Of a DNA stretch of 64,000 nt, positions 20,637-55,096 are shown piece by piece. Source of the DNA: a virus (lineage: Duplodnaviria; Caudoviricetes); the IMG/VR virus record IMGVR_UViG_3300021400_000080, positions 11,710 through 75,709 of that record; one strand, 5' to 3'. Both the position numbers and the translations under genes were made by a program. The notes beneath the pieces are model-generated. The model saw only the letters and a list, made by a program, of their open reading frames with translations. It did no database searches and was not told where the DNA came from. Position 1 is the first letter of the stretch, and every line of letters begins with the position of its first letter.

Positions 20637-22142
20637 ATGCCCGAAAACGACAACCCGCAGACAGATTACCGCCCTATCGAGGTTCCCACTCCCGATCCCA
20701 CACGGTATTCGATTTTCAAGCAGGGTCCGAAGGGCGGTCTGACGTTCTATCCCAGGAACATCATCAAGTACCTCGCGGCGAAATGGATCGTCTACGACGG
20801 TCATACCCCACGCATATTCAACGGGCGGTCATATCAGGTCATCCCCGACAATAAGTTCGTCGCCATGGTCGCGGATTCCGTCGATGCCTACATGACGGAC
20901 ACGCTCGTATCGAAAGGGCAATACCAATCAATCTTCTTCAATGCCGAGGCGATCCTGGACTTCGACAGGGTCCCGTACTTCGAGGACCCCGAACAGAGGG
21001 ACGATTACTCCGTGGTCGAGGATCAGCGCATAGCCGGGGGTCTCTTCGCTTTCGAGAACGGCATCCTGAACACCGCCAACGACAAGTTCCTCCCCTTCAC
21101 CCATCATCTCATGGTGAGGTCGTGCTACAACTGCCGCTACGACCCCTCCGTGGAGACGTGCCGTGCGGAGAGCATAATCGAGGGGATATTGCCTGATGCC
21201 GACACGAGGAGGTTCTTCTTCGAGATGGTAGGGTCCATCCTCTTCGGGGACATGAACCCGCCCGCCATCTTTGTCATATACGGTCCGGGTGAGACGGGTA
21301 AATCCGCATTGGCGAACATGCTGACCACACTCATGGGCGACGATATGGTATCGAGGGAAACCCTCAAGCAGCTCGGCACGGATAAATACTCCCCCGCAGA
21401 ATTGGAGGGCAAACGTCTCAACGTGTCAGGGGAGACGGGTGCTGTGAAGAACAAGTACACCACCCCCGACGGGGAATTGATAAAACAGCTTTCGGACGGT
21501 CAGGAGATCTCGGTCCAGCGCAAATACGGGCATCCCTATAAGATCCGCAACACCGCCAAACTGTTGTTCCTCACCAACACCGTACCGGACTTCGGTGACA
21601 CATCCAGCGGTCTCTACCGCCGCCTTTATACCATCCCATGCCGCACGAAACAGGATCCGGCACTCAACATCTACAAACTCATGACAGACCCCCAATCCCT
21701 TTCATGGCTGACTAACCGCGCCCTTGAGGGATACATGAGGGTCAAATCCAGGGGATTCAAGTTCGAGCCGTCCGAAGAGATGCAGAAGGAATGGCAGAAC
21801 ATGAGGGTCCAGGACCCCGTGTTCGACTTCCTCTACACGACATTCGATTCCACGGACATCCACGATATATGCGGTCAGATCGTAGCGCACTCCGAGTACA
21901 AGAGGACGAAGTTCATCTACGACAGATACCGCGAGTTCTGTTACGCGAACAACGTGACCCCGTTGGGATCGCGCAAGTTCTACGAGAAGATGAGGAACGA
22001 GACCGAATTGGACATCGGGAAGAACCCCGTTATGTTCCGTGTGGACGGAGTACCTACGAGTACCCGTGTGTTCCAATGGAAAGAATCGGTCCTCAAGGCG
22101 CATTTACAGTCCAAGACGGGTAAGGACAAGGGGAAGCCATGA
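20637..22142 (+). CDS. D5/P4-type SF3 replicative helicase (no recognisable primase domain)
   Basis: FAFENGIL (D5_N), GPGETGKS Walker A, NTVPDFGDTSSGLYRRL, C-terminal winged helix. Confidence 0.9.
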   Translation: MPENDNPQTDYRPIEVPTPDPTRYSIFKQGPKGGLTFYPRNIIKYLAAKWIVYDGHTPRIFNGRSYQVIPDNKFVAMVADSVDAYMTDTLVSKGQYQSIFFNAEAILDFDRVPYFEDPEQRDDYSVVEDQRIAGGLFAFENGILNTANDKFLPFTHHLMVRSCYNCRYDPSVETCRAESIIEGILPDADTRRFFFEMVGSILFGDMNPPAIFVIYGPGETGKSALANMLTTLMGDDMVSRETLKQLGTDKYSPAELEGKRLNVSGETGAVKNKYTTPDGELIKQLSDGQEISVQRKYGHPYKIRNTAKLLFLTNTVPDFGDTSSGLYRRLYTIPCRTKQDPALNIYKLMTDPQSLSWLTNRALEGYMRVKSRGFKFEPSEEMQKEWQNMRVQDPVFDFLYTTFDSTDIHDICGQIVAHSEYKRTKFIYDRYREFCYANNVTPLGSRKFYEKMRNETELDIGKNPVMFRVDGVPTSTRVFQWKESVLKAHLQSKTGKDKGKP

Positions 22143-22188
22143 AAAATGCCTTAGAAGGCGATTCCGATAGATTAGGAGGGAGATCACG

Positions 22189-23685
22189 ATGACACGCACA
22201 TACGCACAACCGCTGCACAATCCGGAGAAGTTCACGCTCAAGGAACATCAGACCTTCGCATCAGAGATGATGGAGAACGTGGAATGTCTCGCCCTTTTCT
22301 ACGAGGCGGGAACAGGAAAGACCATGTGCGTACTCGATTGGGCCTACCGCGCGGTCGAGAGAGGGGATCTGAACTCCCTCCTGGTGATATGTCCCGCCAA
22401 CATCGTGGGGGTATGGACATCAGCGGTCGATAAGATGATCGAGTTCGAGGGATACACCAAGGACGGCATCGCCCGGCTCAAGAGCATCATGACCGTCCGT
22501 TCGTTCCAAAAGACCTACAAGACGGAGACCCGCGAGGTACAGCACAGGAACGGCAGCAAGGGACAGAAAAAGACCCGCGACATCCGTCCGGACATCAACC
22601 GCTATTGGGGAGCCATAGTCGTGGACGAGTCGCACAGTATTGGCGCGCACCAATCCGTCCAGACGAAGGCCGCCCTCGCCCTCGCCATGAAAGCATCCAA
22701 ACGGTTCATCCTCACAGGCACACCCGTGTCGGGAGGAGGAGGCGCGGGAGATTATAAGAAACTCTACGGACAACTGAAATTCCTGGACAACACGGTATGG
22801 GCATCGTGGACGGACTTCTGCAAGAGGTATGTGCTGGCTTTCGACGTGTTCCGCAACCCCGTCCGTTACCGCGAGGCCGAGTTGAAGAAACTGATGGAGG
22901 ACTACGGGATCGTCGCAAGACTGGACATGTGCTACGACATGCCGGATTCGTCCGAGATCGTCATCCCGTGCGAGTTGAAGGAACCCCAGGCATACAAGCG
23001 TATCCGTGAGGGAGATACCGCCACCTACGGATTCGAGATACGCACGGGAGGGGGTCAGTACATCAAGCTGCTGGAACTCGTGTCCGGATTCGTCAAGACC
23101 GACGATAAGGAGGTATCCCCCGGCAAATTCACCAAGGAAGTGCTGAAATTCAAGTGCGAGAAACAGGATGCCCTCAAGACCATCATCACGGGAACGGACG
23201 ATAAGGTCGTGGTATTCTGCAAATTCCGTGAGAGCATAGACGATGCCTACGAGGTATGCTCCAAGATGGGCGAGACGGTCGTGTTCGACGGTCGGTCCAA
23301 CAAGGACACATGGCGCGACTTCCAGTACGGGGATGCCCGCTATCTGATCTGCCAGTACCAGTCGGGAGGGGTCGGACTCGATCTCTACGCGAGTCACACG
23401 ATGGTATTCTACGAACCGGAATGGTCCTCCCTGCTGCTGGAACAGGCGAAGGCGCGTATCCGGAGGAAAGGTCAGACCAAACGCTGCATCTACTACTGGC
23501 TGTCCACGAAGGGGACCATCGAGGAAGATGCGATCCAGTCCGTGAGGAACGGAGTCACCGTCACCACCGAACTCCTTGAGATGTGGGCGAAACGCGAGAT
23601 GAAGAACACGGTCAGCAACGACGATGAAGATGAGGACAACCCCGACACCGACAACCCGGATGAGACGGGAGAATCCGAGATATGA
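22189..23685 (+). CDS. SNF2-like SF2 helicase
   Basis: EAGTGKT, VVDESH, LTGTP, GGVGLDL, QAKARIRRKGQ. Confidence 0.92.
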   Translation: MTRTYAQPLHNPEKFTLKEHQTFASEMMENVECLALFYEAGTGKTMCVLDWAYRAVERGDLNSLLVICPANIVGVWTSAVDKMIEFEGYTKDGIARLKSIMTVRSFQKTYKTETREVQHRNGSKGQKKTRDIRPDINRYWGAIVVDESHSIGAHQSVQTKAALALAMKASKRFILTGTPVSGGGGAGDYKKLYGQLKFLDNTVWASWTDFCKRYVLAFDVFRNPVRYREAELKKLMEDYGIVARLDMCYDMPDSSEIVIPCELKEPQAYKRIREGDTATYGFEIRTGGGQYIKLLELVSGFVKTDDKEVSPGKFTKEVLKFKCEKQDALKTIITGTDDKVVVFCKFRESIDDAYEVCSKMGETVVFDGRSNKDTWRDFQYGDARYLICQYQSGGVGLDLYASHTMVFYEPEWSSLLLEQAKARIRRKGQTKRCIYYWLSTKGTIEEDAIQSVRNGVTVTTELLEMWAKREMKNTVSNDDEDEDNPDTDNPDETGESEI

Positions 23686-24011
23686 CATGGAGAGAACGCA
23701 AGGCAAGGCGCACGATATGGAGATACTGGAACCGCAGGATGTCCCTCATCGGGCGCAGATTGAGGGAGACCACGACATCCGACGAGGATCTTGTGGGGTA
23801 GTGGGATGCGTGTTCCTCCGAGAGCAAGGACAGATTCGTGAAGGACATCAGGTCGCAGTTGGAGAACCAGCACACGGAATACGGGGAGGACTACCGCACG
23901 TTCGCCATCCTGGACGAGTCGTGCGCGGTCCTGTTGGGTATCGAGTACACCATAGCCATGGCGAGGGTGAGGATAGCCAAGAAGAGGGCATCCCGTGTAT
24001 TCCTCAATTGA
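23682..24011 (+). CDS. hypothetical protein with in-frame TAG (109 codons)
   Basis: ATGA-coupled to SNF2; TAG at 23799-23801, then 69 more sense codons to TGA. Confidence 0.65.
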
Positions 24012-24084
24012 CCGAGTATGTGATTGTATGGAAATGTATATAATCGTACGAGATAATCGAGGAATACCGAAAGGTGAAATGCGA

Positions 24085-24822
24085 ATGACAGACGAGAATA
24101 AAGCGATTCTGGATAAGGTCGCGCAACTGTCCGAGAGGATAGCCGCGTGCGACTGGACCCCGGACGGAGAGTACCCCGTGAAGGGCAAACCCCTCCGTTA
24201 TGTCACCGGGAAGAAGATCAAGCGCACCCTCCGTCCTATCCTCAACGAGATGGGCATCGTGTTCCGCTACGACATGGCAGACGTTCAGTCGCTACCGGCA
24301 TGCGGGGTCAAGGAGAACCACGTCCTCATCAGGGGATTCGTCACCCTGACCGACAAGGTAACGGGTCAGTCCATCCAATACTCCGTCATATCGGAGGGCG
24401 CGGATGCGGGCGATAAGGCGGTCATGTCGGGAGCCGCGTATGCGAAGAGGTTGTTCTGGATAAGCAATTTCGACATCGTGGACGGCATGGAGAACACCGA
24501 GGACGAGGGAGGGGTCTCATCCTCCGATGTCGCGGCCAATCTCATCAGACAGGCGATCCCCGAAACCCCCGCACCGACCCCGACCCCCGTCCATCCCGTC
24601 ACCGGATCCGCGGGCGAACCCGTCACATCGCCCGGAGAGGGCAACATCGCCAAGATGCAGGTCCGTGCTATGGACAACGCACTGGCGGCCATCAAGAGGG
24701 CAGACGACGAGGGACGTATCCTCCACGAATACTACGAGAAGGCACTTGAGATCCGCAAGAAGGCATCCTGCAAGGAGGATGTCGAAGCTCTGCTCAACAT
24801 CAAGAGGGAACTCGGACTATGA
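24085..24822 (+). CDS. ERF-family ssDNA-annealing protein
   Basis: LRPILNEMGIVF...GADAGDKAVMSGAAYAKR. Confidence 0.8.
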   Translation: MTDENKAILDKVAQLSERIAACDWTPDGEYPVKGKPLRYVTGKKIKRTLRPILNEMGIVFRYDMADVQSLPACGVKENHVLIRGFVTLTDKVTGQSIQYSVISEGADAGDKAVMSGAAYAKRLFWISNFDIVDGMENTEDEGGVSSSDVAANLIRQAIPETPAPTPTPVHPVTGSAGEPVTSPGEGNIAKMQVRAMDNALAAIKRADDEGRILHEYYEKALEIRKKASCKEDVEALLNIKRELGL

Positions 24823-25856
24823 GGAACTATGTGGCTCCCCGCTATCCGTTCACCATCGCGGATAACCGTGTCTACACGGAGGCCGACGAAGTATACCATG
24901 TGACGGGGACATCCATCGGTGCGCTGCTCGGTCAGTCACCGTGGGAATCCCCGTTCACGGCATCCGCGAAACTGCTCGGATTGTGGCTCGAAGCGGATGT
25001 CGGGGACAAGCCGGCAGTGAACACCGGAAAGGTACTCGAAGAGAGGATCATCGACTACGTTGCGGAGAAACACCCGGATGTCGGACAGTTCTTCCGTGCG
25101 GAGGATCTGTTCGCACCCCGCGAGGGGGACCATGAGAAGTGGCCCTCCGATTTCGAGGATGAGGATTTCCACGGCCATGTCGATGGTATAATCTCGAAGG
25201 ACGGAGTGGACTACATCCTTGAGGTCAAGACCGTGAACGAACGCGGCCTTTCCGCATGGAACGGCTCGATCCCCGCCCATTACCTCTGGCAAGTGTATCT
25301 CTACAATCACTTCCTGACCCAACAGGATAAGGCATATTTCGCTATCGGACTCGTGAACAGCGACACCTACGCGAACCCCTATGTGTGGGTCCCGAACAAG
25401 AACAACTGCCTGCTCATCGAGGTCCCGATAGACCGCGAGATGGTAGCCGCCAAGATCGAAGAGGTACGCGCTATCCGTCATAAGATCGTGGAGGAACGTG
25501 CTACGCTCCCCGCTGATTTCAACGATCCGCGCGATAAGGAACTCATGGTACATCTCATGGACATCTCCGGGGACACCGACAGACTGTTGGATGCCACCGC
25601 ACGTTATGAGGAACTCATGAGACAGATCGACGAGGCCGAGTCGAGGATAAAGCCGCTGAAGGACCAAGCCGAGGACTACAAGACACGCATCAAGGACATG
25701 ATGGTCGCACATTCGCTGTCCAGGTGCGCCAATCTCAATCTGACTACGCAGACCCGCGAAACGTTCGATTTCGCCAAGGCGCGCGCGGATGGATTGAACA
25801 TCGACCCGTACACCAAAACCACAACCACGAAGATATTAAGGAGGTCTAAGATATGA
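24819..25856 (+). CDS. YqaJ/lambda-exonuclease-like recombination nuclease
   Basis: GTSIGALLGQSPWESP, GHVDG, LEVKT, YLWQVYLY. Confidence 0.88.
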   Translation: MRNYVAPRYPFTIADNRVYTEADEVYHVTGTSIGALLGQSPWESPFTASAKLLGLWLEADVGDKPAVNTGKVLEERIIDYVAEKHPDVGQFFRAEDLFAPREGDHEKWPSDFEDEDFHGHVDGIISKDGVDYILEVKTVNERGLSAWNGSIPAHYLWQVYLYNHFLTQQDKAYFAIGLVNSDTYANPYVWVPNKNNCLLIEVPIDREMVAAKIEEVRAIRHKIVEERATLPADFNDPRDKELMVHLMDISGDTDRLLDATARYEELMRQIDEAESRIKPLKDQAEDYKTRIKDMMVAHSLSRCANLNLTTQTRETFDFAKARADGLNIDPYTKTTTTKILRRSKI

Positions 25857-26305
25857 TTACACCTACACCCTGGATTCTAAGCAGCATGGTCGCAAAAGCA
25901 ACCGTCCCTCTCTGCGAGGGCAACCACACCCTTCAGATCACGGAGGCATCGTTCAAGGACGATGAGAACTACTACTCCCTCACCCTCAAGTCCCTCGACG
26001 AAGAGGACGAGCAGTCCACCCTCCGCTACTACATCATCAAGAAGGACGGGACCAGGAACGAACAGGCCATCGGCACGCTGAACAAACTCGGACACTGCAT
26101 TTTCGGACTTCCGGAGGATCAGGTCGGAATCCCCAACCCGGAGGACATCGTGAACGGCATCGTCAGGGGATTCGTCAAGCACAATGTCTACGAGGGCAAG
26201 GAGTTCGTGAACATCTACGAGTACACCCCCGTAGACAAAAAGACCCTTGAGATCGCCAAGGAATCCGGCATCACCGTTCTGGACCAGTACGCAATCGAGG
26301 GATGA
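25853..26305 (+). CDS. putative single-stranded DNA-binding (DUF669-like) protein
   Basis: Follows the exonuclease/annealase pair; EGNHTLQITEAS beta pattern. Confidence 0.5.
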   Translation: MITPTPWILSSMVAKATVPLCEGNHTLQITEASFKDDENYYSLTLKSLDEEDEQSTLRYYIIKKDGTRNEQAIGTLNKLGHCIFGLPEDQVGIPNPEDIVNGIVRGFVKHNVYEGKEFVNIYEYTPVDKKTLEIAKESGITVLDQYAIEG

Positions 26306-26595
26306 GTATGGTATTCGTCCGTACATCCACCATCAAGAACAAGGGGAACGGACGGGTAATCTACATCCCCGCAGAATGGGGATTCAAGGCGGGGGATTGG
26401 GTCACTATCCGCATGGCTAAAACCGGTGCGACGTGGCCCTATTCCCTCACGACCCGTATCAAGCCGCAGAAAACGGGATCGGATTACATCAATATCCCCC
26501 CCGAATGGCCGTTGTTCATCGGGGATATGGTCGATGTGAAGATCACCTATGCAGACATCCCCAGGACGGAGATGGCGAAGGATGCCAACCCCTGA
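26302..26595 (+). CDS. tandem AbrB-like swapped-hairpin protein
   Basis: Two repeats: IYIPAEWGFKAGDWVTI and INIPPEWPLFIGDMVDV. Confidence 0.7.
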   Translation: MSMVFVRTSTIKNKGNGRVIYIPAEWGFKAGDWVTIRMAKTGATWPYSLTTRIKPQKTGSDYINIPPEWPLFIGDMVDVKITYADIPRTEMAKDANP

Positions 26596-26911
26596 ACAGC
26601 TCATCAAGAGGGACCTCAAGAGGTTCATCGAGGGCATCGGGGGTTATTGGGTATCCGTCCAAGGGGGACCCGGCTCCAAGCCGGGGGACCCCGACATCAT
26701 CGCATGTATCGACGGAAGGTTCATCGGCATCGAGGCCAAGACCGACACGGGAAGATAGTCGGAGATCCAAAAGCACCGCTGCGAACAGATAATGTCGGCA
26801 GGGGGAGTCTATCTTACTGTGCGGTCGTTGGAGGACCTTAGACAAGGACTCCGCGATGCGGGGATTCCCGGACTCCGAGACGGGCGCGAAACCCGTCCTA
26901 AAACCCCTTAA
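26582..26911 (+). CDS. VRR-NUC nuclease with in-frame TAG
   Basis: GDPDIIACIDGRFIGIEAKTDTGR*SEIQKHRCEQIMSAGGVYLTVRSLEDL; TAG at 26756-26758 splits the domain. Confidence 0.85.
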
Positions 26912-26983
26912 CCACTTTTCGATTATCCATTAGTCCTAACACCACGAAATACCTTAAATAGTCCATATTTTGATTCATTCATC

Positions 26984-27226
26984 ATGGCAGATATGATGGA
27001 CAAAACCATTAGCGCGATACTCACTGCGTTCGTCGCGGTGATATTGATCGCTTCTGCGTTCATCCCTACTGCCATTCAGCAGATCGACACTCTCAACGAC
27101 AAGTACGGGTCGGATGTAGCGGGTTACACCGCACTCATCTCGACGGTCATCATTGTGACGATTGTCGGTATCATAATCGGCATAGTGAAAACCTACTCCT
27201 CCGGAAAAGGCGATGGAGACCGTTGA
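26984..27226 (+). CDS. two-helix hydrophobic capsid-like protein (minor, VP3-like)
   Basis: Hydrophobic helix-Pro-loop-hydrophobic helix, 80 aa. Confidence 0.6.
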   Translation: MADMMDKTISAILTAFVAVILIASAFIPTAIQQIDTLNDKYGSDVAGYTALISTVIIVTIVGIIIGIVKTYSSGKGDGDR

Positions 27227-27253
27227 TCTGACGAATATCGGAAGGTATGAACA

Positions 27254-27496
27254 ATGAACACCGAAGATTTCACCAGCAAAGTTGTCGGCATCGTGATTGC
27301 CGTCATCGTGATCGCGGTCGTTGCCATCCCCATCATCAATGGCATGATCGGAACCGACGGAACCCCTGAGGGATCCACCTACCCCATCCAGTCCGGCTCC
27401 ACCGAAGCTACCATCATCAAGGTCATCCCCATCTTCCTCATCCTGGCCGTCCTGATGGGAGTCGTCTACATGTTCCTCAACGGAAAGAAGAACTGA
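27254..27496 (+). CDS. putative major capsid protein of spindle-shaped-virus type
   Basis: IVIAVIVIAVVAIPIIN...ATIIKVIPIFLILAVL parallels the SSV1 VP1 pattern (LLPVIVSQV...ATLLNLVPLFYIL). Confidence 0.7.
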   Translation: MNTEDFTSKVVGIVIAVIVIAVVAIPIINGMIGTDGTPEGSTYPIQSGSTEATIIKVIPIFLILAVLMGVVYMFLNGKKN

Positions 27497-27503
27497 AGGA
27501 GGC

Positions 27504-27725
27504 ATGAAAATGAACACCGAAGATTTCACCAGCAAGGTTGTCACCGTTGTCATCGCGGTCATCGTGATTGCTGTCGTGGCCATCCCCGTCATCAATCAGG
27601 CGGCCGAGGAAAGCGGAGCCGACAACACCACCAAGACCATCCTGGGAGTCATTCCCATCTTCCTCATCCTGGCCGTCCTCATGACCGTGGTCTACATGTT
27701 CATGAACGGCAAGAAGGACAACTGA
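27504..27725 (+). CDS. putative major capsid protein paralog with a shorter loop
   Basis: Near-identical helices to 27254-27496; different loop. Confidence 0.7.
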   Translation: MKMNTEDFTSKVVTVVIAVIVIAVVAIPVINQAAEESGADNTTKTILGVIPIFLILAVLMTVVYMFMNGKKDN

Positions 27726-27907
27726 TCGCAGAACCACGGGGGGTAGGGTTTACCCCCCAACCTTTTTTCACGACTGCGTAGTTTTTATACATCCCACTCA
27801 TTAGGAGGATTGAGGTTGCCTACATCCTCCGGGGGGTTCTCGATTCCTCCCCCCGATATTCCTTTTTTGTATGCACGTTTTATAAACCACGTTTCCGATA
27901 ATCGAGT

Positions 27908-30418
27908 ATGCAGACAGGAATGAAAGCGGGTCTTGCAATCGTCCTCGCGGTATTCCTCACGGGCATCGTGGGGTTCCTCACCGCAGTCGTGCCGGAGGAC
28001 GAGGAAAGGACCTATTACGACCAAGTGAGCGATCTGACTCCGATTGTGGATGCCAGCGCAATCGACTCGTACACGGAATATAACCCGGTGACGAATGTCA
28101 GCGGATGGGCGAACATAGAAGGTGTGACGATCCCCACATTAACGACTGGCATATCTGCATATCCGTACAGATATACCACTGCCGGAGAGGATAGCGATAT
28201 ATCCAGATCGGTGAAGTTCGCAGCAGTCCTCGATGAATATCCTGATGATCCAGAGAAGTCATATTTCTGGCCCGTTGCTAAAATCTATTCGTTGTATGAA
28301 TCCTCAATCCCTAACAGTATCGAGTACAACGATGTAGAGATAGCAACGTCGGGCAGAGGTAATATAAGCGTAACCAAGGAGTATCAGGAAGGGGAATCGT
28401 TCGCAATCTGCATACTCCACATAGATACGCAAACGGCACAGCCAATCCATCAATTCACATACGAGGTCCACGTTAGTCCAACGTCTCAAAACAATTTCCG
28501 TCAGACCATCTCGACACTGGCGGTATTGGATAACCAGACATCGAGGACGATAACCGTGGGATGGGGGGAGAACTTCGAGTTACAGATCAATGTGTCATTG
28601 GGCGCACATCAGACCATCCGTGTGGACATGTTATCCCACGAAGGATATAGAGGACAGAATATCTTGTTAGATAATGGCGAGATCGTCAATGGTTTTTCAT
28701 CGAATCCGGTATCGCCTAAAGAATATTACGGAGGGGGATTGGATCAGCAGTATGCCCAAGGCGCACCTTCCACACGCACGACCTCTATCTCCAATTATCT
28801 TGTAGTGGACGGCCGCCATCTGACTACCGAATACGGAGCATACACCGTATATCCGCTGTCCATGTATTTCCCGCAGTCGGCATCCATCCAGGACGGGACC
28901 TTCATATCCATAGCCGGACTGAAATATGCGATGCCCACAACGTTCTATCATGGCACACGGACATGGGACGGCGGAGATTCAGGAGATGATGTATCGGGAA
29001 CGTGCCGTACCAACATATCCTCGATAGGGTATGACCATCTTGTTTATGTCAAGGATAACGAGAAGTGGTATCCGGGAGTATTGTCCGAGAACGGGTTGTA
29101 TTATGAGGCCGACATGACTAAACCGGGATATGGTATCGACGAGATATTCATGTTCGCATACGGGTTCAAGCAAGCTGCGACAATCAATGCAACGGAGATC
29201 GAGGTACAGTACGAATATATCGACGGTACTAAATTCGTTACAGTTGCAGACGGTATCACTGCGAAATGGTCCAATTACATGGACAGTACGGTAGGCGGCA
29301 AGACGGTGACGGTTCCCTATAACAACGGAGCAATCGTGCTTTTGACCGAGCCGGGAACAACCATATCGTCCGATAAAGTGTTCTATAAGGACACCGACGG
29401 CAACGTGACCCAAGGTAGTATGACACTTACCGTTCCTACATCCATCCCCTACTCGATGGCCCGTGTGACGTTGGACTTCCAGAACAATACCTACTATGCA
29501 CAGGGTATCGTGTGGGGATCCATCGACGAGGACGAGAGGGGAACGGGCAACTGGACCCTCCGTCCTTACCAGTATCCGATCTCAATCGGACTGAATGGCA
29601 TCCCTGACGTATCCTACGTCCAGGGGATCTCCGTTGAAAAAGCCGGGGGAACCAAGGTATTCGTTCTTGAGACCAGCGTGCAGACCGACCCGATGGGCAG
29701 ATTATGGGGTGATCCCACCATCTATCTCGGATACTTCTTCCCTGACTACTTCACCCACGACAGTGCAACCGGCAACACGGGAGTACCTACGACCGCCATC
29801 CGTATGCTCATCAACGGAGTTGTGAGTTACGGGACCTCGCTGACTATCAACGGACAGTATATGCCCGTGGCAGACGGGAACATCACGTTCACCTACTACA
29901 CCTACGAGACGGAGACCATTCCCTCCACCGACCCGAACGTCCCGCCTACAACCAACACGATCACCGTCACCAACGAGGGCAACATGCCGGTCAAGGGTAT
30001 GGCGATAGATTGGGAGGATGGGCATGTCTATCTTGTGTTCACCGAACAGGGTAAGACCCGTTACGATCTCGGAGAATACGATACGACCGCGGCCAATGTG
30101 GTCATCGCGGGTACGGACACAGGGAAGGACACCGTTGTAACGGACATCATAAGCGGAACGGGGACATGGTATTGGCAGTCCAACCTCTACACGATTAACC
30201 ACGAGATCGAAACGGTCCTCAAACTCGACCTCACACAAGGTTTGTCGGGTTGGGGAATGACGTTACAGGTCTCGATGCTGCTCTTCGCGGGTATGCTCAT
30301 CGTGGGGGTTGCCATCGTCCACTACTACTACCGCGACTCCGACGAACCGATGGGAATCCTTGATTGGGTTATTATAGGATTAGCGATATTGTTATGCTTA
30401 GGAGTTGCAGCAATATGA
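27908..30418 (+). CDS. large virion surface or tip protein (836 aa) with an N-terminal TM and two C-terminal TMs
   Basis: Hydrophobic ends and a Thr/Tyr-rich beta ectodomain; directly follows the capsid genes. Confidence 0.7.
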   Translation: MQTGMKAGLAIVLAVFLTGIVGFLTAVVPEDEERTYYDQVSDLTPIVDASAIDSYTEYNPVTNVSGWANIEGVTIPTLTTGISAYPYRYTTAGEDSDISRSVKFAAVLDEYPDDPEKSYFWPVAKIYSLYESSIPNSIEYNDVEIATSGRGNISVTKEYQEGESFAICILHIDTQTAQPIHQFTYEVHVSPTSQNNFRQTISTLAVLDNQTSRTITVGWGENFELQINVSLGAHQTIRVDMLSHEGYRGQNILLDNGEIVNGFSSNPVSPKEYYGGGLDQQYAQGAPSTRTTSISNYLVVDGRHLTTEYGAYTVYPLSMYFPQSASIQDGTFISIAGLKYAMPTTFYHGTRTWDGGDSGDDVSGTCRTNISSIGYDHLVYVKDNEKWYPGVLSENGLYYEADMTKPGYGIDEIFMFAYGFKQAATINATEIEVQYEYIDGTKFVTVADGITAKWSNYMDSTVGGKTVTVPYNNGAIVLLTEPGTTISSDKVFYKDTDGNVTQGSMTLTVPTSIPYSMARVTLDFQNNTYYAQGIVWGSIDEDERGTGNWTLRPYQYPISIGLNGIPDVSYVQGISVEKAGGTKVFVLETSVQTDPMGRLWGDPTIYLGYFFPDYFTHDSATGNTGVPTTAIRMLINGVVSYGTSLTINGQYMPVADGNITFTYYTYETETIPSTDPNVPPTTNTITVTNEGNMPVKGMAIDWEDGHVYLVFTEQGKTRYDLGEYDTTAANVVIAGTDTGKDTVVTDIISGTGTWYWQSNLYTINHEIETVLKLDLTQGLSGWGMTLQVSMLLFAGMLIVGVAIVHYYYRDSDEPMGILDWVIIGLAILLCLGVAAI

Positions 30419-30681
30419 TGTCACCGCAGGAGTTCATCGACATGCTTGCCCAGGCCTTCTTCCAGGGCAATACGCAGATCGCGGGCATAGTCGTGTTCAC
30501 CGCTGTCCTCGCCATCATATACCTCCTGTTCGCGCAGAGGAATATCACCGTAGGTCTTATCCTTACCCTCCCTACGACCCTCGTGTTCTCGCTGATGGGT
30601 ATTCTGCCGGAGGTCCTGACCATCCTCGTGGTGATCGTAACCATCCTCGCCCTCGTCCATAAGTTCAAGGAGATGTCGTGA
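30415..30681 (+). CDS. small 3-TM membrane protein
   Basis: Hydrophobic; ATGA-coupled. Confidence 0.75.
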   Translation: MMSPQEFIDMLAQAFFQGNTQIAGIVVFTAVLAIIYLLFAQRNITVGLILTLPTTLVFSLMGILPEVLTILVVIVTILALVHKFKEMS

Positions 30682-31910
30682 TGATAAGCAGTATGGGGGG
30701 TTCCATGCTCGCCAATGCCCTTTCGGGCGGCGGCGGAGCATCGGAATGGATGCACAAATGGATGCTCATAGGTTTGGGTATCCTGGTATTCACCCCCCTG
30801 CTGTTCAGTCTGTGGTTCCCTACGGAGTATGAAGGCGAATATGCGGATGTTCAGAACGATATAGAGGAACAGTACCTCCACATGACCGGATCCTACTCCA
30901 CACCCCAACAGAACATCTGGACCCTGACGGGAATCTATACACCATACAATTCCGAGAAATTCGGCTGGACCGATGATGGCTGGCTGTATGGTTCGGAGGT
31001 CAAGACCTATTCCCCGTCGCAGTATCAATCGACCGATCAATTCCCCGGAACGCTGACAGTGAAAAAAGCGGATAACGGGATCTGGTATTACACGTCCGTA
31101 CCCAACAACTTCCAGGGGATAACCCTCGCCACATGGGACGGGGATAAGGTCACCAATCCGAAGGAGGCATCCGTCTATTCGAGCATCTATTTCGATAATG
31201 CCCACAAGTCGGACAGATTCTTCACCACTACCACGAAAACGGAGACCGCCCAGGGATACTACTACGATTATTCGGGATACAGATACACCTATCAGCCGTT
31301 GAGCAACTACAATATCGACGTGTCAGGTACGATCACCAAGGTGGATAGGGATACGACATCCCTTTCCCTGATATGGTATCAGTATTCCACGTTAAGCGGC
31401 ATAGCCGGGCAGCTCACTATATCGGGCAGCGATTCAGGGGTCAGTTATATCACGTCGGATGACATCATAAGAGTGTTCAACTCCGCGAACAGCACCGCAG
31501 TGTTCGACATGACCTTCAACGGGGTTCCCATGCATCTCCTTATCAGAATGGATCCCTCGCGCCTCGCGTGGTTGAGCGTAGCGGATTGTTACAACAGCGG
31601 ATACTGGAACGTCATGGTATACAGCGATGCGGTCGCGGCATCCCTCTCCGGGGACACCTACGAGTTCAACATCAATACGATGTGGGACACCATCGTCAAT
31701 ATCTTCACATTCAACCTCGCCAATGAATACGACATCGACGGTTGGGAGGGATTCGTGGTATCCGTCCTGTTCTCGATGGTCCTCTACTCCGTCCTGCTCA
31801 TCATCGCTATGGATCACCCCTTCGTGTTCATAATCATCGGACTGATAGGACTCATTCAGGCAGCTACATCGTTCCTCGGCAGCGGTTCGGGGTTGTTCGA
31901 TTTCCTGTGA
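30678..31910 (+). CDS. membrane protein with an extracellular domain (N-terminal TM, two C-terminal TMs)
   Basis: Hydrophobic segments at both ends. Confidence 0.75.
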   Translation: MMISSMGGSMLANALSGGGGASEWMHKWMLIGLGILVFTPLLFSLWFPTEYEGEYADVQNDIEEQYLHMTGSYSTPQQNIWTLTGIYTPYNSEKFGWTDDGWLYGSEVKTYSPSQYQSTDQFPGTLTVKKADNGIWYYTSVPNNFQGITLATWDGDKVTNPKEASVYSSIYFDNAHKSDRFFTTTTKTETAQGYYYDYSGYRYTYQPLSNYNIDVSGTITKVDRDTTSLSLIWYQYSTLSGIAGQLTISGSDSGVSYITSDDIIRVFNSANSTAVFDMTFNGVPMHLLIRMDPSRLAWLSVADCYNSGYWNVMVYSDAVAASLSGDTYEFNINTMWDTIVNIFTFNLANEYDIDGWEGFVVSVLFSMVLYSVLLIIAMDHPFVFIIIGLIGLIQAATSFLGSGSGLFDFL

Positions 31911-31954
31911 TAAACCTCTTAATCCTTTTATATGGACAACCGCGATACGAAAGT

Positions 31955-32371: not shown

Positions 32372-32442
32372 AACCCCTTATCCCCCCTACGGGGGGAATC
32401 TACCCGTCCTTTTTATATGCGCTATCGTGATTACTTCATAAA

Positions 32443-37300: not shown

Positions 37301-38378
37301 GGATACAACCACTCCCTTCTATAATTGCGGATTCGACGGTTCGCTCATCATCGGAGACGGGTTGTCAGCTGTTTATGACTATATGTTCAACGGCTGTGCG
37401 TTCCAGAACGACCTTGTAATCGGAGATTCCATCGTAGGTATTCCCATAGGTACTTTTGACAGTTGCAGGAATTGTACGGGTACTCTGACCCTGGGAAACG
37501 GTCTGAAATCAATAGAGAGACAAGCGTTCAGCGGTTATAAATTCACAGGGGAATTGATACTTCCCGAAGGAATGACTGAATTGAAATACGGTGCTTTTGA
37601 GAATTGCAAGGGATTCACGGGACCTCTTGTCATTCCGGATAGCATGATAACCTTGGGTAATAACAATTCATCGAATAATGATGGGGTATTCGCAGGTTGT
37701 TCCGGATTCACATCCCTTGTCCTCGGCAGCTCGCTTGAGATGATAGGCCGCAGTACTTTTGCATCATGCACCGGTATGACAGGCGATCTGATAATCCCGG
37801 ATAGCGTGACTGTGATCGGATACAATGCGTTCAACGGTTGTTCATTCACATCATTGGATATAGGCAGCGGATTAACGTCCATTCCCGGACAGGCATTTTA
37901 CGGAAATAAATTCGCAGGAACACTGGTGATCCCGGATAATATACAGACGATAGCAAGCCACGCATTTTATTTCAATAATAATTCAAGAGTGGATACATTG
38001 GTGTTGGGTAGGGGACTCACATCCATCGGAACTTACTCATTCGATACAGCGTATGCAGCACAATCCAGACTGGATAATATCGTGGCATTATCCGACCCCA
38101 CTATCGGCACGGGTGCGTTCAGAGGATCAACAGTATCCCAAATCCTGAATCTGACTGGTTCGGATCTGACCAATGTCGTACCTGGAAACGGAGACATCCC
38201 CTCGACAGCTACGATCCGCACAGCTTTCGAGGATACGGCTATGCTCCAACACACTACCGAGACCATCGTGGTAGATAAAGAAGGGATGGAATACAGTATC
38301 ATGCGGGTGATCCCGATTATAATGGCATTGGCAATACTGATCGGGGTTGCATATTACATCAGGGGGAATAAGATATGA
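34374..38378 (+). CDS. BspA-type leucine-rich-repeat (LRR_5) adhesin anchored by a capsid-like helix 2
   Basis: Many CTGFTG.L.IPDSVT.IG..AF repeats; signal peptide (start probably 34413); C-terminus SIMRVIPIIMALAILIGVAYYIRGNKI. Confidence 0.9.
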   Translation: MALNTACSLNEQGMSIKWVGILILGMAALFGCIVAFESDDADAATANPNYRDGDWGYDLVTENGLTTAKIVSYSGTGGGAITIPTTIGGYTVTQVGKNADYGNNNVFEPTLVATDLIIPDGILKINKFACQNLSNFTGTLSLGNTVTTLGLSCFSNGGFTGTLTLPRSITTIIYSTGNYAAFYNCAGFTELVIENGMSGDIGHDMFRNCTGFTGALVIPDSVTYIGMRAFQGCSGFTSLSIGSNVTTIYDSAFYNCTGFKGSLTIPDSVTTFGGYYSSTNQGIFQNCRGFDGVLKIGNGITKIPAACFMNCSGFTELILGNSLTEIQDYSDYGVFKGCTGLTGNLTLPNTLTKIGNSAFDGCSGLTGALVIPNNVTYIGSVAFRNCSGFTSLTLSNSLTEIKSSTFSGCTSMTGDLIIPDSVTTIYYPFSSSSSTSSPFYNCGFGGSLIIGDGLTAVGQYMFDGCVFNDNLVIGDSITDIPSGAFACCKTATGTLTIGSGVQSIGNSVFYQYKFTGSLVLPNGLKTIRDQAFAQCTGFTGSLVIPSTVTTIGVHSSSTSNSSGAFRGCTGFTGALVIPDSVTLLGDRTFQGCTGLTGTLTIGTGVTDINPYCFYGCKFTGNLNIPGNVVKILDYAFGNNTGFTSLTLQEGLDLIWTRAFSECTGMTGVLAIPDSVTTLGPKSYANGCFYNCSGFTGLNLGDGVEIIGDTCFWNCTAMAGSLIIPDSVEYIGKCAFYECAFDGTLTIGNNVSEIGYGAFYSYNHGSFIGDLVIPDSVTVFGNPNSQGYNQEPIFWYAGFTGSLTIGNGITVIPQGTFYGCGFTGTLTIGNNVTQIGSYDGNTGAFENVPFTGALVIPDSVTKIMGRSFKGCSGFTTLSLGSGLTQITGYDTFRDCTGFTGALVIPDTVQYLGPKNTSGTTFTGGRAFMGCTGFTFLTIGKNVELIGPGTFSGCTGFRGDLVIPDSVVEIAYGSYYHPDTTTPFYNCGFDGSLIIGDGLSAVYDYMFNGCAFQNDLVIGDSIVGIPIGTFDSCRNCTGTLTLGNGLKSIERQAFSGYKFTGELILPEGMTELKYGAFENCKGFTGPLVIPDSMITLGNNNSSNNDGVFAGCSGFTSLVLGSSLEMIGRSTFASCTGMTGDLIIPDSVTVIGYNAFNGCSFTSLDIGSGLTSIPGQAFYGNKFAGTLVIPDNIQTIASHAFYFNNNSRVDTLVLGRGLTSIGTYSFDTAYAAQSRLDNIVALSDPTIGTGAFRGSTVSQILNLTGSDLTNVVPGNGDIPSTATIRTAFEDTAMLQHTTETIVVDKEGMEYSIMRVIPIIMALAILIGVAYYIRGNKI

Positions 38379-39076
38379 GCCAAGAGGAACTGTCCAATAA
38401 CATAGCCGGTATCGCGGTGTGCGTGGTCGTGTTCGCGGTCATAGCCATACCGATCTTCTACGGACTTACCACCGAACCGTATACCAATGTGAATGAAGAT
38501 GCGATAGGTGAATTACGTCTCGGATACCAGGAACAGGTTTTCAGGGAGGAGATCATAGAAGCCGAGACGGAGGAAGAAGAGGACGAAGTGATATTGGTCG
38601 ATATTACTGCCTATGTTGCAAAATCGTATCTCTTCACGATCAACGGAGATACTATATCGGTATCGGGTGATTGGACGGGCGAATTATCCTTGTCCGACAA
38701 TCAGATCATCATCGGCTCCGACAATTACCAATTGACCATCCAGTACGGAAAACTGATCGAGTCTGTCGATGGATATGGTGTGGAAGTGTTTTCACCCCTC
38801 CAAGTGTCCATCCACGACGGTTCCGTGAAGGATGTTCCGTACACGTTCCTCTATTATCCGGATGCGAAAGGCCCGTATGCCAATTACCAATCCTATCGGT
38901 ATGACATCACCGACCACTATTCTGTCGGAACATTCGCAGGGGTAACGGTTTCCGCGATCAATGACGAGGTAAAGGGCGATAACCAATACGGTTTCGGAGC
39001 CGAGACACAGACCGAAGATGGTACAACGACCGGAGTGGTATATTCGCCAAGAACGGAAGAACAGACCGAATCGTAA
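38375..39076 (+). CDS. capsid-like helix 1 plus ectodomain (no helix 2)
   Basis: IAGIAVCVVVFAVIAIPIFYGL matches the capsid helix 1; ATGA-coupled to the LRR gene. Confidence 0.75.
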   Translation: MSQEELSNNIAGIAVCVVVFAVIAIPIFYGLTTEPYTNVNEDAIGELRLGYQEQVFREEIIEAETEEEEDEVILVDITAYVAKSYLFTINGDTISVSGDWTGELSLSDNQIIIGSDNYQLTIQYGKLIESVDGYGVEVFSPLQVSIHDGSVKDVPYTFLYYPDAKGPYANYQSYRYDITDHYSVGTFAGVTVSAINDEVKGDNQYGFGAETQTEDGTTTGVVYSPRTEEQTES

Positions 39077-39162: not shown

Positions 39163-41121
39163 ATGGCAGAAGAAAAGAGCATAACGAGTATGGCGATCAC
39201 CGTGGTCATCGCGTTGGTCGTGACATGCACCGTACTCTTCCCGGTCATCAACAGTGTTAATGATGGCGGGAACGGGGGAGGCAGCGGAGGTGGAAGTGCA
39301 GTAGGGTCCGCAGCCGGTCCGCTGACCTACACCAACGAGGGGGACTACTACTACCAGGATTATGATAAGGCAACGGCAGATGCTATGGCGATCAGTATGT
39401 CCTTGTCCAGTGGCAGCGATGTCGGAATGAGCATCAATGTAGGGGGAGATGTGATCAACACCCCCACATATCCTGCAACCTGGACATCAGCAGTAGGAGA
39501 CCCCAACGAATGTCAGATTATTCTGCCTCTCTTATACATCGAGCAAATTCCTGGGAATTTTAGCGGAATTTTGATGTATCTCAACGGGCATTATGAACTG
39601 CCTGGTCCTGCATATACATTCGACATATGTTTCCTTGCAACTGGGACATCCGGCGGGAATCCGATGGCGATTTCGATGGGTATGCCACTCACTAACGAGA
39701 TGCTTGCAGGGGTTACATCGGTAAACACACTTTTGGGATTGTTGCCATTCTTCCCTCCAGGTACAACGATAAGTTACGATACCATTCGCCTACTGGCTTC
39801 TGAAGGAGATTATGTTTCAGCCAAGAATCCTGTGGTCGGGAACGAAAGCGATGCGTGGCTGTTCAATGCAACGTATGATTATTCCTGGGATGAAAGTGAG
39901 ATTTACGGCATATACAAGTATTATGTATGGTGGATTGATGGTGTGGAGACTCATACCGAGATTTCATACAATGGTGGATCCGGATACAGCCAGTATGGGA
40001 ACGATCCTACAATAGTCGTGAACAGATCTACAATCAACGATTTGTCAAGAGTGGATAGCTTCACGGTCCAGTATGTCGGAACTTCCTCTGATCGTCACGC
40101 GTATCTCGATTATTCCGATGTTTATGCGATTATACCTAAGACCGTAGAATACACGCTTGCATCGGGCGATAATTCAGATAATGTGACCGCACATGCGACA
40201 TATTATGAGACTGCACCTAATCTGAATATCGCAGTGTCCTATACCACGGAAACACGCGAGGCCGCTGTTTGGGGTGAAACTAATACTGTGACTTCAGTTG
40301 ATACTCTTACATTATCCTATGACGGACATTCAATCACAGTCGATAACCGCGCTAATCTTAATGAGTATTTCACCAGGATGGCGAGTGCAACGACCAATGA
40401 TGAGTGGACCGAGATAGATAATTGGATGTATTCGGTTAATTCTGTTCCTATCTTATTCAATCCACCTATCAATAATGAGACAAGTTCGTTGAGTGATAGG
40501 ATAGTCACGATTTGGCTACCTTATGCAGTGCCACAAGGGGAGTTTGAAAATGTTTCTTCCGACATACCCACCTCAATATCCATTACCCCTACGCAGGTCA
40601 CTGTAACATCGCCTAACGACTCGCGGGATTATCCCATAGATGGCCCGTGCTATATTATCAGTGACACGGGGGATTACGGAGTATTCACCCAAAACAATCT
40701 GTCCGAGGGAGTTTATGTGGGTTCCGATATTCTGACCGATTTCAACGGCCCTATTACCGGACAAGATTCGGTTTTGAGATTCGTTCAGATATTCAATATG
40801 AATTTCAGTACGAGTATGTATGAGACTTCCTCACGTCTCCAGGACACCTATGCCTTGACCATCGAGGACGGTATGCTCAAGGACATAGGATGGGAGGGAG
40901 GATACAGGCAGACGGGCAACAATCCCATGGCCGAATACGGACACATCTCCGCGCAGTATGTCATTCTGCCCTTATCCGCAGACAACGGTTCGGGAGGCGG
41001 TTCCTCCGGCAACGGAAACCTCGGAGTAGCCGGAACGATCCTCGCGGTCGTACCAATCTTCGTGGTCCTGGGCATCCTAATGTATGCCGTCCAGTATTTC
41101 CGCGATCCCCGGAAGCTTTGA
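39163..41121 (+). CDS. capsid-hairpin paralog with an ~570-aa passenger between Gly linkers
   Basis: ITVVIALVVTCTVLFPVINS-GGNGGGSGGG...GGGSSGNG-VAGTILAVVPIFVVLGILM. Confidence 0.85.
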   Translation: MAEEKSITSMAITVVIALVVTCTVLFPVINSVNDGGNGGGSGGGSAVGSAAGPLTYTNEGDYYYQDYDKATADAMAISMSLSSGSDVGMSINVGGDVINTPTYPATWTSAVGDPNECQIILPLLYIEQIPGNFSGILMYLNGHYELPGPAYTFDICFLATGTSGGNPMAISMGMPLTNEMLAGVTSVNTLLGLLPFFPPGTTISYDTIRLLASEGDYVSAKNPVVGNESDAWLFNATYDYSWDESEIYGIYKYYVWWIDGVETHTEISYNGGSGYSQYGNDPTIVVNRSTINDLSRVDSFTVQYVGTSSDRHAYLDYSDVYAIIPKTVEYTLASGDNSDNVTAHATYYETAPNLNIAVSYTTETREAAVWGETNTVTSVDTLTLSYDGHSITVDNRANLNEYFTRMASATTNDEWTEIDNWMYSVNSVPILFNPPINNETSSLSDRIVTIWLPYAVPQGEFENVSSDIPTSISITPTQVTVTSPNDSRDYPIDGPCYIISDTGDYGVFTQNNLSEGVYVGSDILTDFNGPITGQDSVLRFVQIFNMNFSTSMYETSSRLQDTYALTIEDGMLKDIGWEGGYRQTGNNPMAEYGHISAQYVILPLSADNGSGGGSSGNGNLGVAGTILAVVPIFVVLGILMYAVQYFRDPRKL

Positions 41122-52183: not shown

Positions 52184-53008
52184 TTACTCCTCCTTACCCT
52201 TACCGATTACTACCCTTGCCGAACACTCGTATGCGGCCTTCACGGCCTCCAATCTGCCCGTTGCTTTCAGCAGCTCGTAGAAGGTCGATTGAGGGACATA
52301 CAACTTGGTAAGGGCGATAGCACGGAGACTCAATCCTTCGGATGCCCATGCTAACACTTCGGGCATAGTCGTGATCTTCGTCTTGTGCTTGACGTTATCA
52401 TCGAACCGCAGCAATCCCTCGGCCTTGTAGAGTCCGGCATCAATGTCCTCTTGGAACACGATCCTCATCGGGCGGGAATTGTGCTTTCCGGCGGCCTTAC
52501 GCTGACGGAGGGCCATCTTGGTGTTCTCGCTGATCTTCTTCCTTTCCTGTTCGGCTTGCCATGCTCCGATGGTAGCGATCAATTGACCTTCCATCGTCTC
52601 CGGCTTGGTCGATTCATTGACGAACCTGATACGGCATCCGAACTGTTCGACCTGATGCTGGATGTTCATGTAGTCGCGCTGATCCCTCGATATGCGTGAG
52701 ATGTTCCACGCTATGAGCAGATCGACCTTACATGTTTCGGGGTCGAAAGGTGCTGGATGGTCGGGGTCGGATTCCACATACTTGGATGCGAAATAACCCT
52801 TGGACAACCTTGCTATCATATCCAGGAATTGTGGACGGTTGATGTCCTTCCCGGATTTCTCGTCTATGAACCGTCCTACGATGGTTATACCCTCGTTACG
52901 GCAATATTCTTCCATGACCGCTATCTGCGCTGCGGTATCCTGTCCTTTATCGTCCGTGGATACCCTCGCGTATAAGACGGCCGTCTGACCTGCGTATTCG
53001 CCCGTCAT
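52184..53008 (-). CDS. serine recombinase (resolvase family)
   Basis: LYARVSTDDKGQ, SGKDINRPQF, ISRISRD, IKENTK-like helix. Confidence 0.92.
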   Translation of the reverse strand: MTGEYAGQTAVLYARVSTDDKGQDTAAQIAVMEEYCRNEGITIVGRFIDEKSGKDINRPQFLDMIARLSKGYFASKYVESDPDHPAPFDPETCKVDLLIAWNISRISRDQRDYMNIQHQVEQFGCRIRFVNESTKPETMEGQLIATIGAWQAEQERKKISENTKMALRQRKAAGKHNSRPMRIVFQEDIDAGLYKAEGLLRFDDNVKHKTKITTMPEVLAWASEGLSLRAIALTKLYVPQSTFYELLKATGRLEAVKAAYECSARVVIGKGKEE

Positions 53009-54856: not shown

Positions 54857-55096
54857 ATGGCCGAAATCGTCATAATCCTTTTTCTCGCCGCGGTGGCGAT
54901 TTTTCTCGCGCGCTATGTGCTGCGTGCCGAAGGGGTCGAGTACCTTTCGATGGTCGTATCCGCGATGGCGATGTTCTCGTCCCTTTTGGACGAAACTCTG
55001 GTGAATATGGACAAAATGTTCATTTTCATACCCACACTGTTCATGATGATGATCTCCGCGCTTTCGCTCACGAAAGGCGGTAAGAAGAGGTGGTGA
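54857..55096 (+). CDS. small 3-TM membrane protein
   Basis: Hydrophobic; TTTAAATA promoter upstream. Confidence 0.75.
   Translation: MAEIVIILFLAAVAIFLARYVLRAEGVEYLSMVVSAMAMFSSLLDETLVNMDKMFIFIPTLFMMMISALSLTKGGKKRW

Follow-up and report, generated by a model that had tools for sequence, protein, structure and literature searches.

The window analysed here is a stretch of 64,000 nucleotides that makes up bases 11710-75709 of the IMG/VR virus record IMGVR_UViG_3300021400_000080, whose full length is 75,709 bp. Three tandem genes for two-helix, capsid-like proteins of 73-80 amino acids (aa) were located at positions 26984-27725 of the window. They were followed at 27908-31910 by a gene for a large surface protein with transmembrane (TM) segments near its C-terminus and by genes for small membrane proteins, and a P-loop ATPase with membrane partners was encoded farther downstream, at 54857-58343. 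All TM segments mentioned here are predictions. A first-pass annotation of the window had pointed out each of these genes and had read them as the structural module of an unusually large spindle-shaped virus with a Methanomassiliicoccales host; the genes were all found in place. The first and last 107 bases of the record are identical. This direct terminal overlap, together with the lengths of the relatives' contigs, which reach 55-75.3 kb and never more, indicates that the genome is complete and circular (or terminally redundant) with a length of 75.6 kb. We consider the element to be probably an undescribed archaeal virus, which would combine this complete circular genome with a hairpin coat protein of the His1 VP21 / VP1 family, an ATPase of the ORF16/B251 family and a host from the Methanomassiliicoccales.

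The two-helix proteins are, as judged from profile comparisons, detectably homologous to the capsid family of His1 VP21 and fusellovirus VP1 (Pfam PF25665 and PF06281). The first paralogue aligned to Pfam His1_capsid over profile positions 2-64 of 73 with a score of 24.8 bits (E 2.1e-5). This family was matched by 8 of the 18 paralogues and orthologues collected from this and related genomes (best E 3.4e-6); the other families hit by these 18 proteins were scattered noise, none of which recurred comparably. When a profile of 35 homologues was run against 177,635 distinct PDB sequences, SSV19 VP1 (7xdi_A) came first (E 1.7e-4), in an alignment that spanned both helices, a conserved proline after helix 1 and the motif AT..(V/I)P(I/L)F.IL that opens helix 2. 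The same register was recovered when the family was aligned by hhalign to His1 VP21 (E 1.5e-3) and to SSV1 VP3 (E 4.6e-4). The AlphaFold2 model displayed a hairpin with helices at residues 3-31 and 50-79 (predicted local distance difference test, pLDDT, 79.5), and the two-helix protein carries a basic C-terminal tail, ...NGKKN. Among 48,161 representative PDB chains compared with the modelled hairpin by VIA-align, 7xdi_A ranked first (Z 8.0, root-mean-square deviation 2.3 A, 69/69 residues) and was the sole chain at Z >= 8. The structural comparison that the first-pass annotation had proposed as a check hence placed SSV19 VP1 at the top, by the small margin given below. Such structural evidence would be insufficient alone and is consistent when taken together with the sequence evidence. 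The hairpins would be the major virion proteins.

The ATPase is, by its profile matches, a member of the His1 ORF16 / SSV1 B251 family. Its best PHROG was phrog_5484 (1.2e-7), in which His1 ORF16 itself scores 2.8e-62 and which was also the best PHROG for the ATPases of two more distant relatives (2.6e-12 and 4.4e-9). The hhalign comparisons gave a probability of 92.9% (E 3.7e-7) with His1 ORF16 and of 85.5% (E 5.8e-6, 179 columns) with SSV1 B251, and both alignments reached well past the Walker motifs. Nothing was returned when the ATPase was compared with His1 ORF16 by BLASTP directly, and the relation is seen by profiles only. An ATPase and a hairpin capsid protein are the two genes which define the morphogenetic module of the small spindle-shaped viruses (10.1101/2025.02.15.638363), and the ATPase described here would presumably have a role in morphogenesis.

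The arrangement in relatives bears on the same module. In a distantly related contig of 23.9 kb (G001:C372), the ATPase block was located directly upstream of the capsid genes, in the order ATPase-associated protein, ATPase (51% identity), three partners, capsid paralogues, variable region and a homologue of the 410-aa protein encoded at the end of the locus studied here. The 134-aa protein beside the ATPase is present there too (41% identity), and two of the conserved partners, of 139 aa and 314 aa, have C-terminal anchors. In a still more distant contig of 11.6 kb (G169:C56), a capsid gene and the ATPase were again found together with a 410-aa homologue. The capsid protein, the 410-aa protein and the ATPase therefore form a conserved core of three.

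About 132 open reading frames (ORFs) were obtained by a simple codon-usage gene call over the whole record, each of which was scanned individually against Pfam and PHROGs; about 60% were left unannotated. The first-pass annotation had recognised no terminase, portal or HK97 capsid in the 64 kb, and this holds for all 132 ORFs of the whole 75.7-kb contig. HK97 capsid, terminase or conjugation genes elsewhere on the contig, which the same annotation had named as the findings that would speak against its reading, were looked for and not found: the 132 ORFs included no terminase, portal, HK97 or other capsid, tail, PolB, VirB4 or VirD4/TraG family. The 'terminase' rows were weak P-loop matches only (E 0.001 or weaker), one in the ATPase g130 and one in the ATPase of a relative. 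The TM-free ORFs above 350 aa were the primase-helicase, the SNF2 helicase, a methyltransferase with an intein and two uncharacterised proteins (376 and 423 aa), and since these two are all that remains among the soluble ORFs of this size, there is no room for a large terminase plus a portal. The capsid and ATPase homologies and the whole-contig scans without head-tail or conjugation genes thus support the spindle-type reading. The positions of the genes are listed in Table 1.

Table 1. Positions of the features described in the text, in coordinates of the 64,000-nucleotide window.
Feature	Position	Strand	Evidence or remark
Replication/recombination module	20637..26911	+	D5-type primase-helicase, SNF2 helicase, Erf-like annealing protein, RecE/YqaJ-like exonuclease, Hjc-like resolvase
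Hjc-like Holliday-junction resolvase	26549-26911	+	In-frame TAG at 26756, inside the Hjc domain
Capsid paralogue 1, 80 aa, the most His1-like of the three	26984..27226	+	Pfam His1_capsid E 2.1e-5
Capsid paralogue 2, 80 aa	27254..27496	+	SSV19 VP1 sequence and structural matches; Pfam VP1_VP3 E 0.014
Capsid paralogue 3, 73 aa, shorter loop	27504..27725	+	73% identity to paralogue 2; His1_capsid E 0.24
Large variable membrane-anchored protein, 836 aa; putative terminal/receptor-binding protein	27908..30418	+	One N-terminal and two C-terminal TM segments
Small multi-TM protein, 88 aa	30415..30681	+	ATGA overlap with the upstream stop, translationally coupled
Core membrane protein, 410 aa	30678..31910	+	One N-terminal and two C-terminal TM segments
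BspA-type leucine-rich repeat (LRR) surface protein, 1334 aa	34374..38378	+	Pfam LRR_5 1.1e-166; C-terminal anchor corresponds to capsid helix 2
233-aa protein, N-terminus corresponds to capsid helix 1 only	38375..39076	+	Domain E 2.3e-5 with the capsid hidden Markov model (HMM)
652-aa protein, capsid helix 1 N-terminal, helix 2 C-terminal	39163..41121	+	HMM domains 5-37 and 621-649; whole-protein E 4.7e-13
Listed with the large surface proteins that bear capsid helices	41466-41996		
619-aa protein, same hairpin-plus-insert architecture	47815..49674	+	HMM domains 5-40 and 585-617; whole-protein E 1.5e-15
Serine recombinase, resolvase/invertase type	52184..53008	-	Pfam Resolvase 7.9e-32
79-aa 2-TM protein (54857-55096) and 134-aa protein, 5' of the ATPase	54857..55494	+	TM prediction; conservation in a relative
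Morphogenesis-type P-loop ATPase, 291 aa	55463..56338	+	Walker A GDTGSGKS; His1 ORF16 / SSV1 B251 family
Three conserved ATPase partners: 139 aa (56335-56754), 314 aa (56756-57700), 212 aa	56335..58343	+	Same order in G001:C372

The host is probably a pyrrolysine-decoding methanogen of the order Methanomassiliicoccales, as the first-pass annotation had supposed, and three lines of evidence support this assignment: the usage of stop codons, a conserved in-frame TAG, and the co-binning of viral contigs with a genome that encodes McrA and PylS and in which MtrA was not found. The predicted genes ended in TGA (n = 99), TAA (n = 26) and TAG (n = 7), and the ORFs ending in TAG were mostly short or doubtful. 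For comparison, 17% of the stops in 'Ca. Methanomethylophilus alvus' are TAA and only 1.6% are TAG (PMC4153887). The in-frame TAG lies in the Hjc-like resolvase gene immediately upstream of the capsid genes; when it was read through, the Pfam Hjc match spanned it and passed the cut-off. A TAG at the same codon was found in three genomes from other samples (L002, L003 and L013), which makes four genomes in total, and the downstream frame was conserved. The more distant relatives displayed Gln or Leu in its place. To judge from these alignments, the pattern is as would be expected under pyrrolysine or read-through decoding.

A search of 185,579 species genomes with the capsid protein gave a single match, a 100% identical contig of 1.4 kb in the metagenome-assembled genome (MAG) G001. 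The same MAG holds two further fragments of the virus as well as the related 23.9-kb contig described above; two or more distinct viruses of the lineage have contigs in G001 (L010, CALAVG010000109.1). McrA and the catalytic domain of PylS (above the curated cut-off) are encoded in G001, in which the N-terminal domain of PylS and MtrA were not found. Among methanogens, this combination fits the Methanomassiliicoccales. In the GTDB order to which G001 belongs, PylS was present in 160 of the 261 species genomes, mostly in open frames of 275-300 aa.

Several observations weigh against the reading as a spindle-type virus of this host. The His1_capsid score of the first paralogue lies below the curated Pfam cut-off of 27 bits. 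In the structural comparison, unrelated helical hairpins follow 7xdi_A at Z 7.2, less than one Z unit behind, and Foldseek with the capsid hairpin gave nothing significant. The lemon-shaped morphology is predicted from the homology of an 80-aa hydrophobic hairpin, and 28 kb separate the ATPase from the capsid genes in this genome. The 836-aa protein displayed no homology to the terminal proteins of known spindle-shaped viruses (alignments by hhalign to SSV1 VP4 and His1 ORF27 were negative; the profile of its family reached a probability of 0.1% with SSV1 VP4). The claim that the locus is the same kind of module as in fuselloviruses and His1 consequently stands for the capsid protein and the ATPase, which are homologous, and becomes one of analogy only for the large protein. 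Two soluble proteins (376 aa, 44133-45263; 423 aa, 1769-3040) are unassigned, and a divergent capsid protein among them is conceivable.

Other points concern the host. The host link through a binned contig of 1.4 kb is weak on its own, and MAG G001 carries the NCBI label 'Methanomicrobiales' (uncultured Methanomicrobiales archaeon); this label looks wrong, and the gene content of G001 fits the Methanomassiliicoccales. Matches to spacers of clustered regularly interspaced short palindromic repeats (CRISPR), another proposed check, did not materialise: BLAST of window positions 20001-40000 against the 261 species genomes of the host order returned many short hits, and none of the 20 that were inspected lay inside a repeat array, although spacers may have been missed because two candidates per genome were scored and 20 kb were queried.

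The only serious rival is a pleomorphic virus of the membrane-vesicle type, or a vesicle-forming plasmid, in which the hairpins would serve as components of an envelope or membrane, with the large anchored proteins as spikes, and the particle would not be lemon-shaped. Small membrane proteins followed by a large protein with a C-terminal anchor, together with a P-loop NTPase, do recall the layout of pleolipoviruses, and pleolipovirus-like proviruses have been reported in Methanomassiliicoccales (PMC10919331). The many anchored adhesin-like proteins would suit an envelope too, and it is in the shape of the particle, predicted from its genes, that this explanation has its opening. The small proteins match the capsid families of His1 and SSV specifically, however, and the ATPase matches the His1 ORF16 / SSV1 B251 family. 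Moreover, no homology to a fusogen family was found for the large anchored proteins in the Pfam, PHROG and PDB searches, which did not include a dedicated comparison with pleolipovirus VP4. The genomes of pleolipoviruses measure 7-17 kb, and the 75.6 kb found here far exceed any of them. We therefore regard a vesicle-type particle as unlikely.

A head-tailed or double-jelly-roll virus so divergent that its true capsid genes went undetected, with the hairpins as accessory membrane proteins, is less probable still. It could draw on the roughly 60% of ORFs that are unannotated and on the two unassigned soluble proteins, for the first of which, the 376-aa protein, no Pfam, PHROG or Atlas match was found. 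This protein had no BLASTP match in the ORFs of two distant-relative contigs which keep the capsid hairpin, the 410-aa protein and the ATPase, and once the annotated and membrane proteins were removed, none of the ORFs resembled a large terminase or a portal in size and composition. The hairpin helices also serve as anchors in at least four other proteins of the structural module, which fits a lattice protein. The weakest explanation, a conjugative or pilus-forming plasmid with the two-helix proteins as VirB2/CedA1-like pilins, can appeal to the archaeal conjugation pilins, which are likewise helical hairpins of about 80 aa, and to a non-significant Foldseek match with the conjugation pilus of Aeropyrum (8dfu, E 5.6), and is highly improbable given that no VirB4/HerA/CedB, VirD4/TraG or relaxase family occurred in the 132 ORFs, that the capsid profile which found SSV19 VP1 in the PDB sequences missed the Ced pilin even at E <= 10, and that the core 410-aa protein had no homologue among 72,556 PLSDB plasmid records by BLAST.

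The spindle-type virus is not a solitary find. Capsid homologues were detected on independent contigs, some from metagenomes (44-74 kb) and four from IMG/VR (46-61 kb). All of them share one gene order, at 40-95% aa identity: the replication and recombination genes (primase-helicase, SNF2, Erf-like protein, exonuclease), a pair of small genes, the three genes for capsid proteins, then the one for the large variable protein and after it that for the 410-aa protein. Such recurrence in independent contigs shows that the arrangement is not due to chance. Homologues of the 410-aa protein formed at least 425 clusters in metagenomes at the 90% level, with 87 representatives at the 50% identity level. 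The longest contigs with such homologues measured 55-75.3 kb; that their lengths top out there suggests an episomal element and not a provirus in large chromosomal contigs. BLAST against 50,697 GenBank phage and virus records revealed no relatives, whether the DNA, the 410-aa protein, the ATPase or the first capsid paralogue was used. We take the group to be a new lineage, probably of family rank, of a known kind of virus.

Compared with His1 (Halspiviridae, Salterprovirus His1), the virus shares the VP21-type two-helix capsid protein (Pfam His1_capsid), the phrog_5484 ATPase (ORF16) and large proteins, anchored by a signal or TM segment, downstream of the capsid gene. The genome of His1 is linear with 14.5 kb, terminal repeats and a protein-primed PolB, whereas the present one is circular with 75.6 kb and a D5 primase-helicase; no DNA_pol_B was among the Pfam hits of all ORFs, and no inverted terminal repeat was found, the terminal overlap being direct. 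It also differs from His1 in having three capsid paralogues and, as its probable host, a methanogen instead of a haloarchaeon. Beyond the capsid protein and the ATPase, no compared protein was similar to its His1 counterpart. Being circular, and not linear with PolB, the virus is not a halspivirus.

The Fuselloviridae (SSV1, SSV19) have in common with it the VP1/VP3-type hairpin, of which 7xdi_A is the best match, the presence of capsid paralogues, a B251-type ATPase and circular double-stranded DNA. Their genomes of about 15-24 kb encode a tyrosine integrase and the end-filament protein VP4, whereas a serine recombinase is found here instead of the SSV integrase, the capsid proteins lack an N-terminal propeptide, and the probable host belongs to the Thermoplasmatota and not to the Sulfolobales. 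Without a VP4 homologue, the virus is not a fusellovirus. In length, its genome exceeds those of fuselloviruses and halspiviruses three- to fivefold.

Large genomes of this general type have been described before. The tepeuvirus PBV144 of the anaerobic methanotrophic archaea ANME-1, a predicted spindle-shaped virus, has an incomplete genome of 72.6 kb (PMC9894754). The size of at least 64 kb given in the first-pass annotation is borne out by the 75,709 bp of the record, but a virus much larger than anything known, as that annotation implied, is an overstatement; with PBV144 at 72.6 kb, 'unusually large' is fair and 'unprecedented' is not. The Tepeuviridae and Itzamnaviridae of ANME-1 are metagenomic, encode family-B DNA polymerases and have Methanophagales hosts (PMC9894754). 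Compared by description, they resemble the present virus in their hydrophobic alpha-helical capsid proteins with several paralogues, in their large genomes and in the division into structural and enzymatic arms (PMC9894754). The bicaudaviruses, which have a different coat protein, reach about 63 kb (ATV, 62,730 bp; PMC12662068). The genome described here is one of the largest known with the two-helix coat type.

Among methanogens, the sole classified spindle-shaped virus is the small Methanosarcina spindle-shaped virus 1 of the Eurekaviridae, which is predicted and known from metagenomes only (PMC12451623). It has a host of a different order, it was classed in that proposal among the small archaeal viruses of spindle shape, and no DNA or protein similarity to it was detectable at the BLAST level. 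We found no published spindle-type virus of the Methanomassiliicoccales, in a search that did not extend to the methanogen-virus survey of Medvedeva et al. 2023 (Nat Microbiol 8:2170), which may list members.

Of the membrane proteins encoded next to the capsid genes, the 836-aa protein keeps its position among the relatives and varies in both length (669-1104 aa) and sequence. It had no Pfam, PHROG or PDB match, and its ESM Atlas model was poor (pLDDT 0.31). An ORF corresponding to the 88-aa protein was present at the equivalent position in the closer relatives, before the 410-aa gene. In the most distant relatives, the 410-aa protein could still be recognised at identities as low as 24%. It is modelled with a beta-rich ectodomain at residues ~60-320 (AlphaFold2 pLDDT about 85-90) and a C-terminal helical hairpin. 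Nothing convincing was found for its fold by Foldseek against PDB and BFVD or by a wide VIA-align search; the flavivirus E fold gave the best match to the ectodomain and was rejected, as its Z of 4.5 is within noise. Both the 410-aa core protein and the variable 836-aa protein may be located at a terminal structure or at the surface, with a function in attachment or entry.

The capsid-family HMM was also searched by hmmsearch against the other proteins of the structural arm, and its two helices were found to recur separately in several of them. In the LRR adhesin, residues 1294-1328 match HMM positions 39-73, that is helix 2 only, and in the 233-aa protein, whose gene overlaps the end of the LRR gene and is translationally coupled to it, residues 2-33 align to HMM positions 4-35. 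The 652-aa and 619-aa proteins carry both helices, separated by inserts of about 550-580 aa (~580 aa in the 652-aa protein) with Gly/Ser linkers on either side; helix 2 of the 619-aa protein was matched by hhalign with a probability of 88%. Relatives encode proteins of the same helix-plus-insert design. The reuse of the hairpin helices in at least four other proteins of the structural module fits the hairpin as a lattice subunit, and these sequence matches suggest a capsid-anchored display of adhesins. His1 ORF23 was tried as a precedent for a capsid hairpin with an insert and displayed no similarity to VP21.

The scans of all ORFs also revealed the enzymatic complement of the genome. The D5-type primase-helicase, SNF2 helicase, Erf-like annealing protein and RecE/YqaJ-like exonuclease keep their synteny with the capsid genes in all relatives, and replication would use the virus's own primase-helicase and SNF2 helicase together with the Erf/exonuclease/resolvase recombination set. 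In other genomes of the host order, this replication and recombination set was found on contigs of 84-91 kb at 25-45% aa identity, including matches at 38-45%. Two such regions, L043 (G168:C2:50000-69999) and L044 (G171:C1:8000-27999), contain the primase-helicase, SNF2, Erf-like and exonuclease genes and the next small gene, and the capsid-hairpin genes were not nearby in either of them. The replication module seems to be shared between different mobile elements of these hosts.

Further families matched were Lar-like, serine recombinase, transglutaminase-like and BspA-type LRR. The anti-restriction load is heavy, with three C5 and one N6/N4 methyltransferase and two Lar-like restriction-alleviation proteins. 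One of the C5 cytosine methyltransferases (7152-8426, minus strand) is split by an intein (Pfam Intein_splicing 5.6e-10, Hint_2). A transglutaminase-like protein of the cysteine protease fold with TM segments is encoded upstream of the primase-helicase (19353-20174) and is kept at the same place in the relatives at 43-80% identity. At the end of the structural arm and on the opposite strand (50461-51944, minus), proteins of 353 aa with seven predicted TM segments and of 136 aa with four were located, for which no informative family match was found. Finally, a second P-loop ATPase of 307 aa (62283-63206, minus strand) has a zinc ribbon at its C-terminus, and its weak PHROG matches are to the 'DnaA-like' families that the morphogenesis ATPase also hits.

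The assembly of the virus may be depicted as follows. By analogy with SSV19 and His1, neighbouring hairpins would pack against each other to build a helical lattice, hydrophobic and membrane-like, which would form a lemon- or spindle-shaped shell around the DNA and in which the three capsid paralogues may take positions in the body and at the tips. At the membrane, the ATPase would work with its membrane partners in assembly or in the loading of DNA, and the ATPase, the small membrane partners and the lineage-specific 410-aa membrane protein would complete the morphogenetic core. The virus would probably attach through its large variable protein, as well as through several surface proteins with capsid-like helices as anchors. 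If the DNA were packed as densely as in His1, 5.2 times the DNA would call for linear dimensions only about 1.7-fold larger, and scaling from His1 in this way would give particles of roughly 75 x 130 nm.

A broader proposal can be put forward tentatively, with somewhat less than even confidence. The virus and its relatives, with genomes of 55-75 kb, would constitute the first lineage of spindle-type viruses to be recognised for the Methanomassiliicoccales. Their capsid hairpin would have become a display scaffold, such that the helix-ended 652-aa and 619-aa proteins and the LRR and 233-aa proteins could insert in the lattice and decorate the particle with adhesins. They would also rely on the pyrrolysine decoding of their host, with in-frame TAGs kept.

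The Methanomassiliicoccales are pyrrolysine-using, methylamine-consuming methanogens of guts and rumens, and the host range of such viruses would be extended to them if the assignment is true. The 75.6 kb raise the known size limit for the two-helix capsid and bear on the question of how a lattice of 80-residue hairpins scales to five times the DNA of His1 or SSV1. The anchoring of adhesins by capsid helices and the conserved in-frame TAG are two testable leads. The virus could offer replication, recombination and anchoring parts to a group of archaea without genetic tools, and a lineage so abundant in metagenomes, with its at least 425 core-protein clusters, may matter to the ecology of these methane producers.

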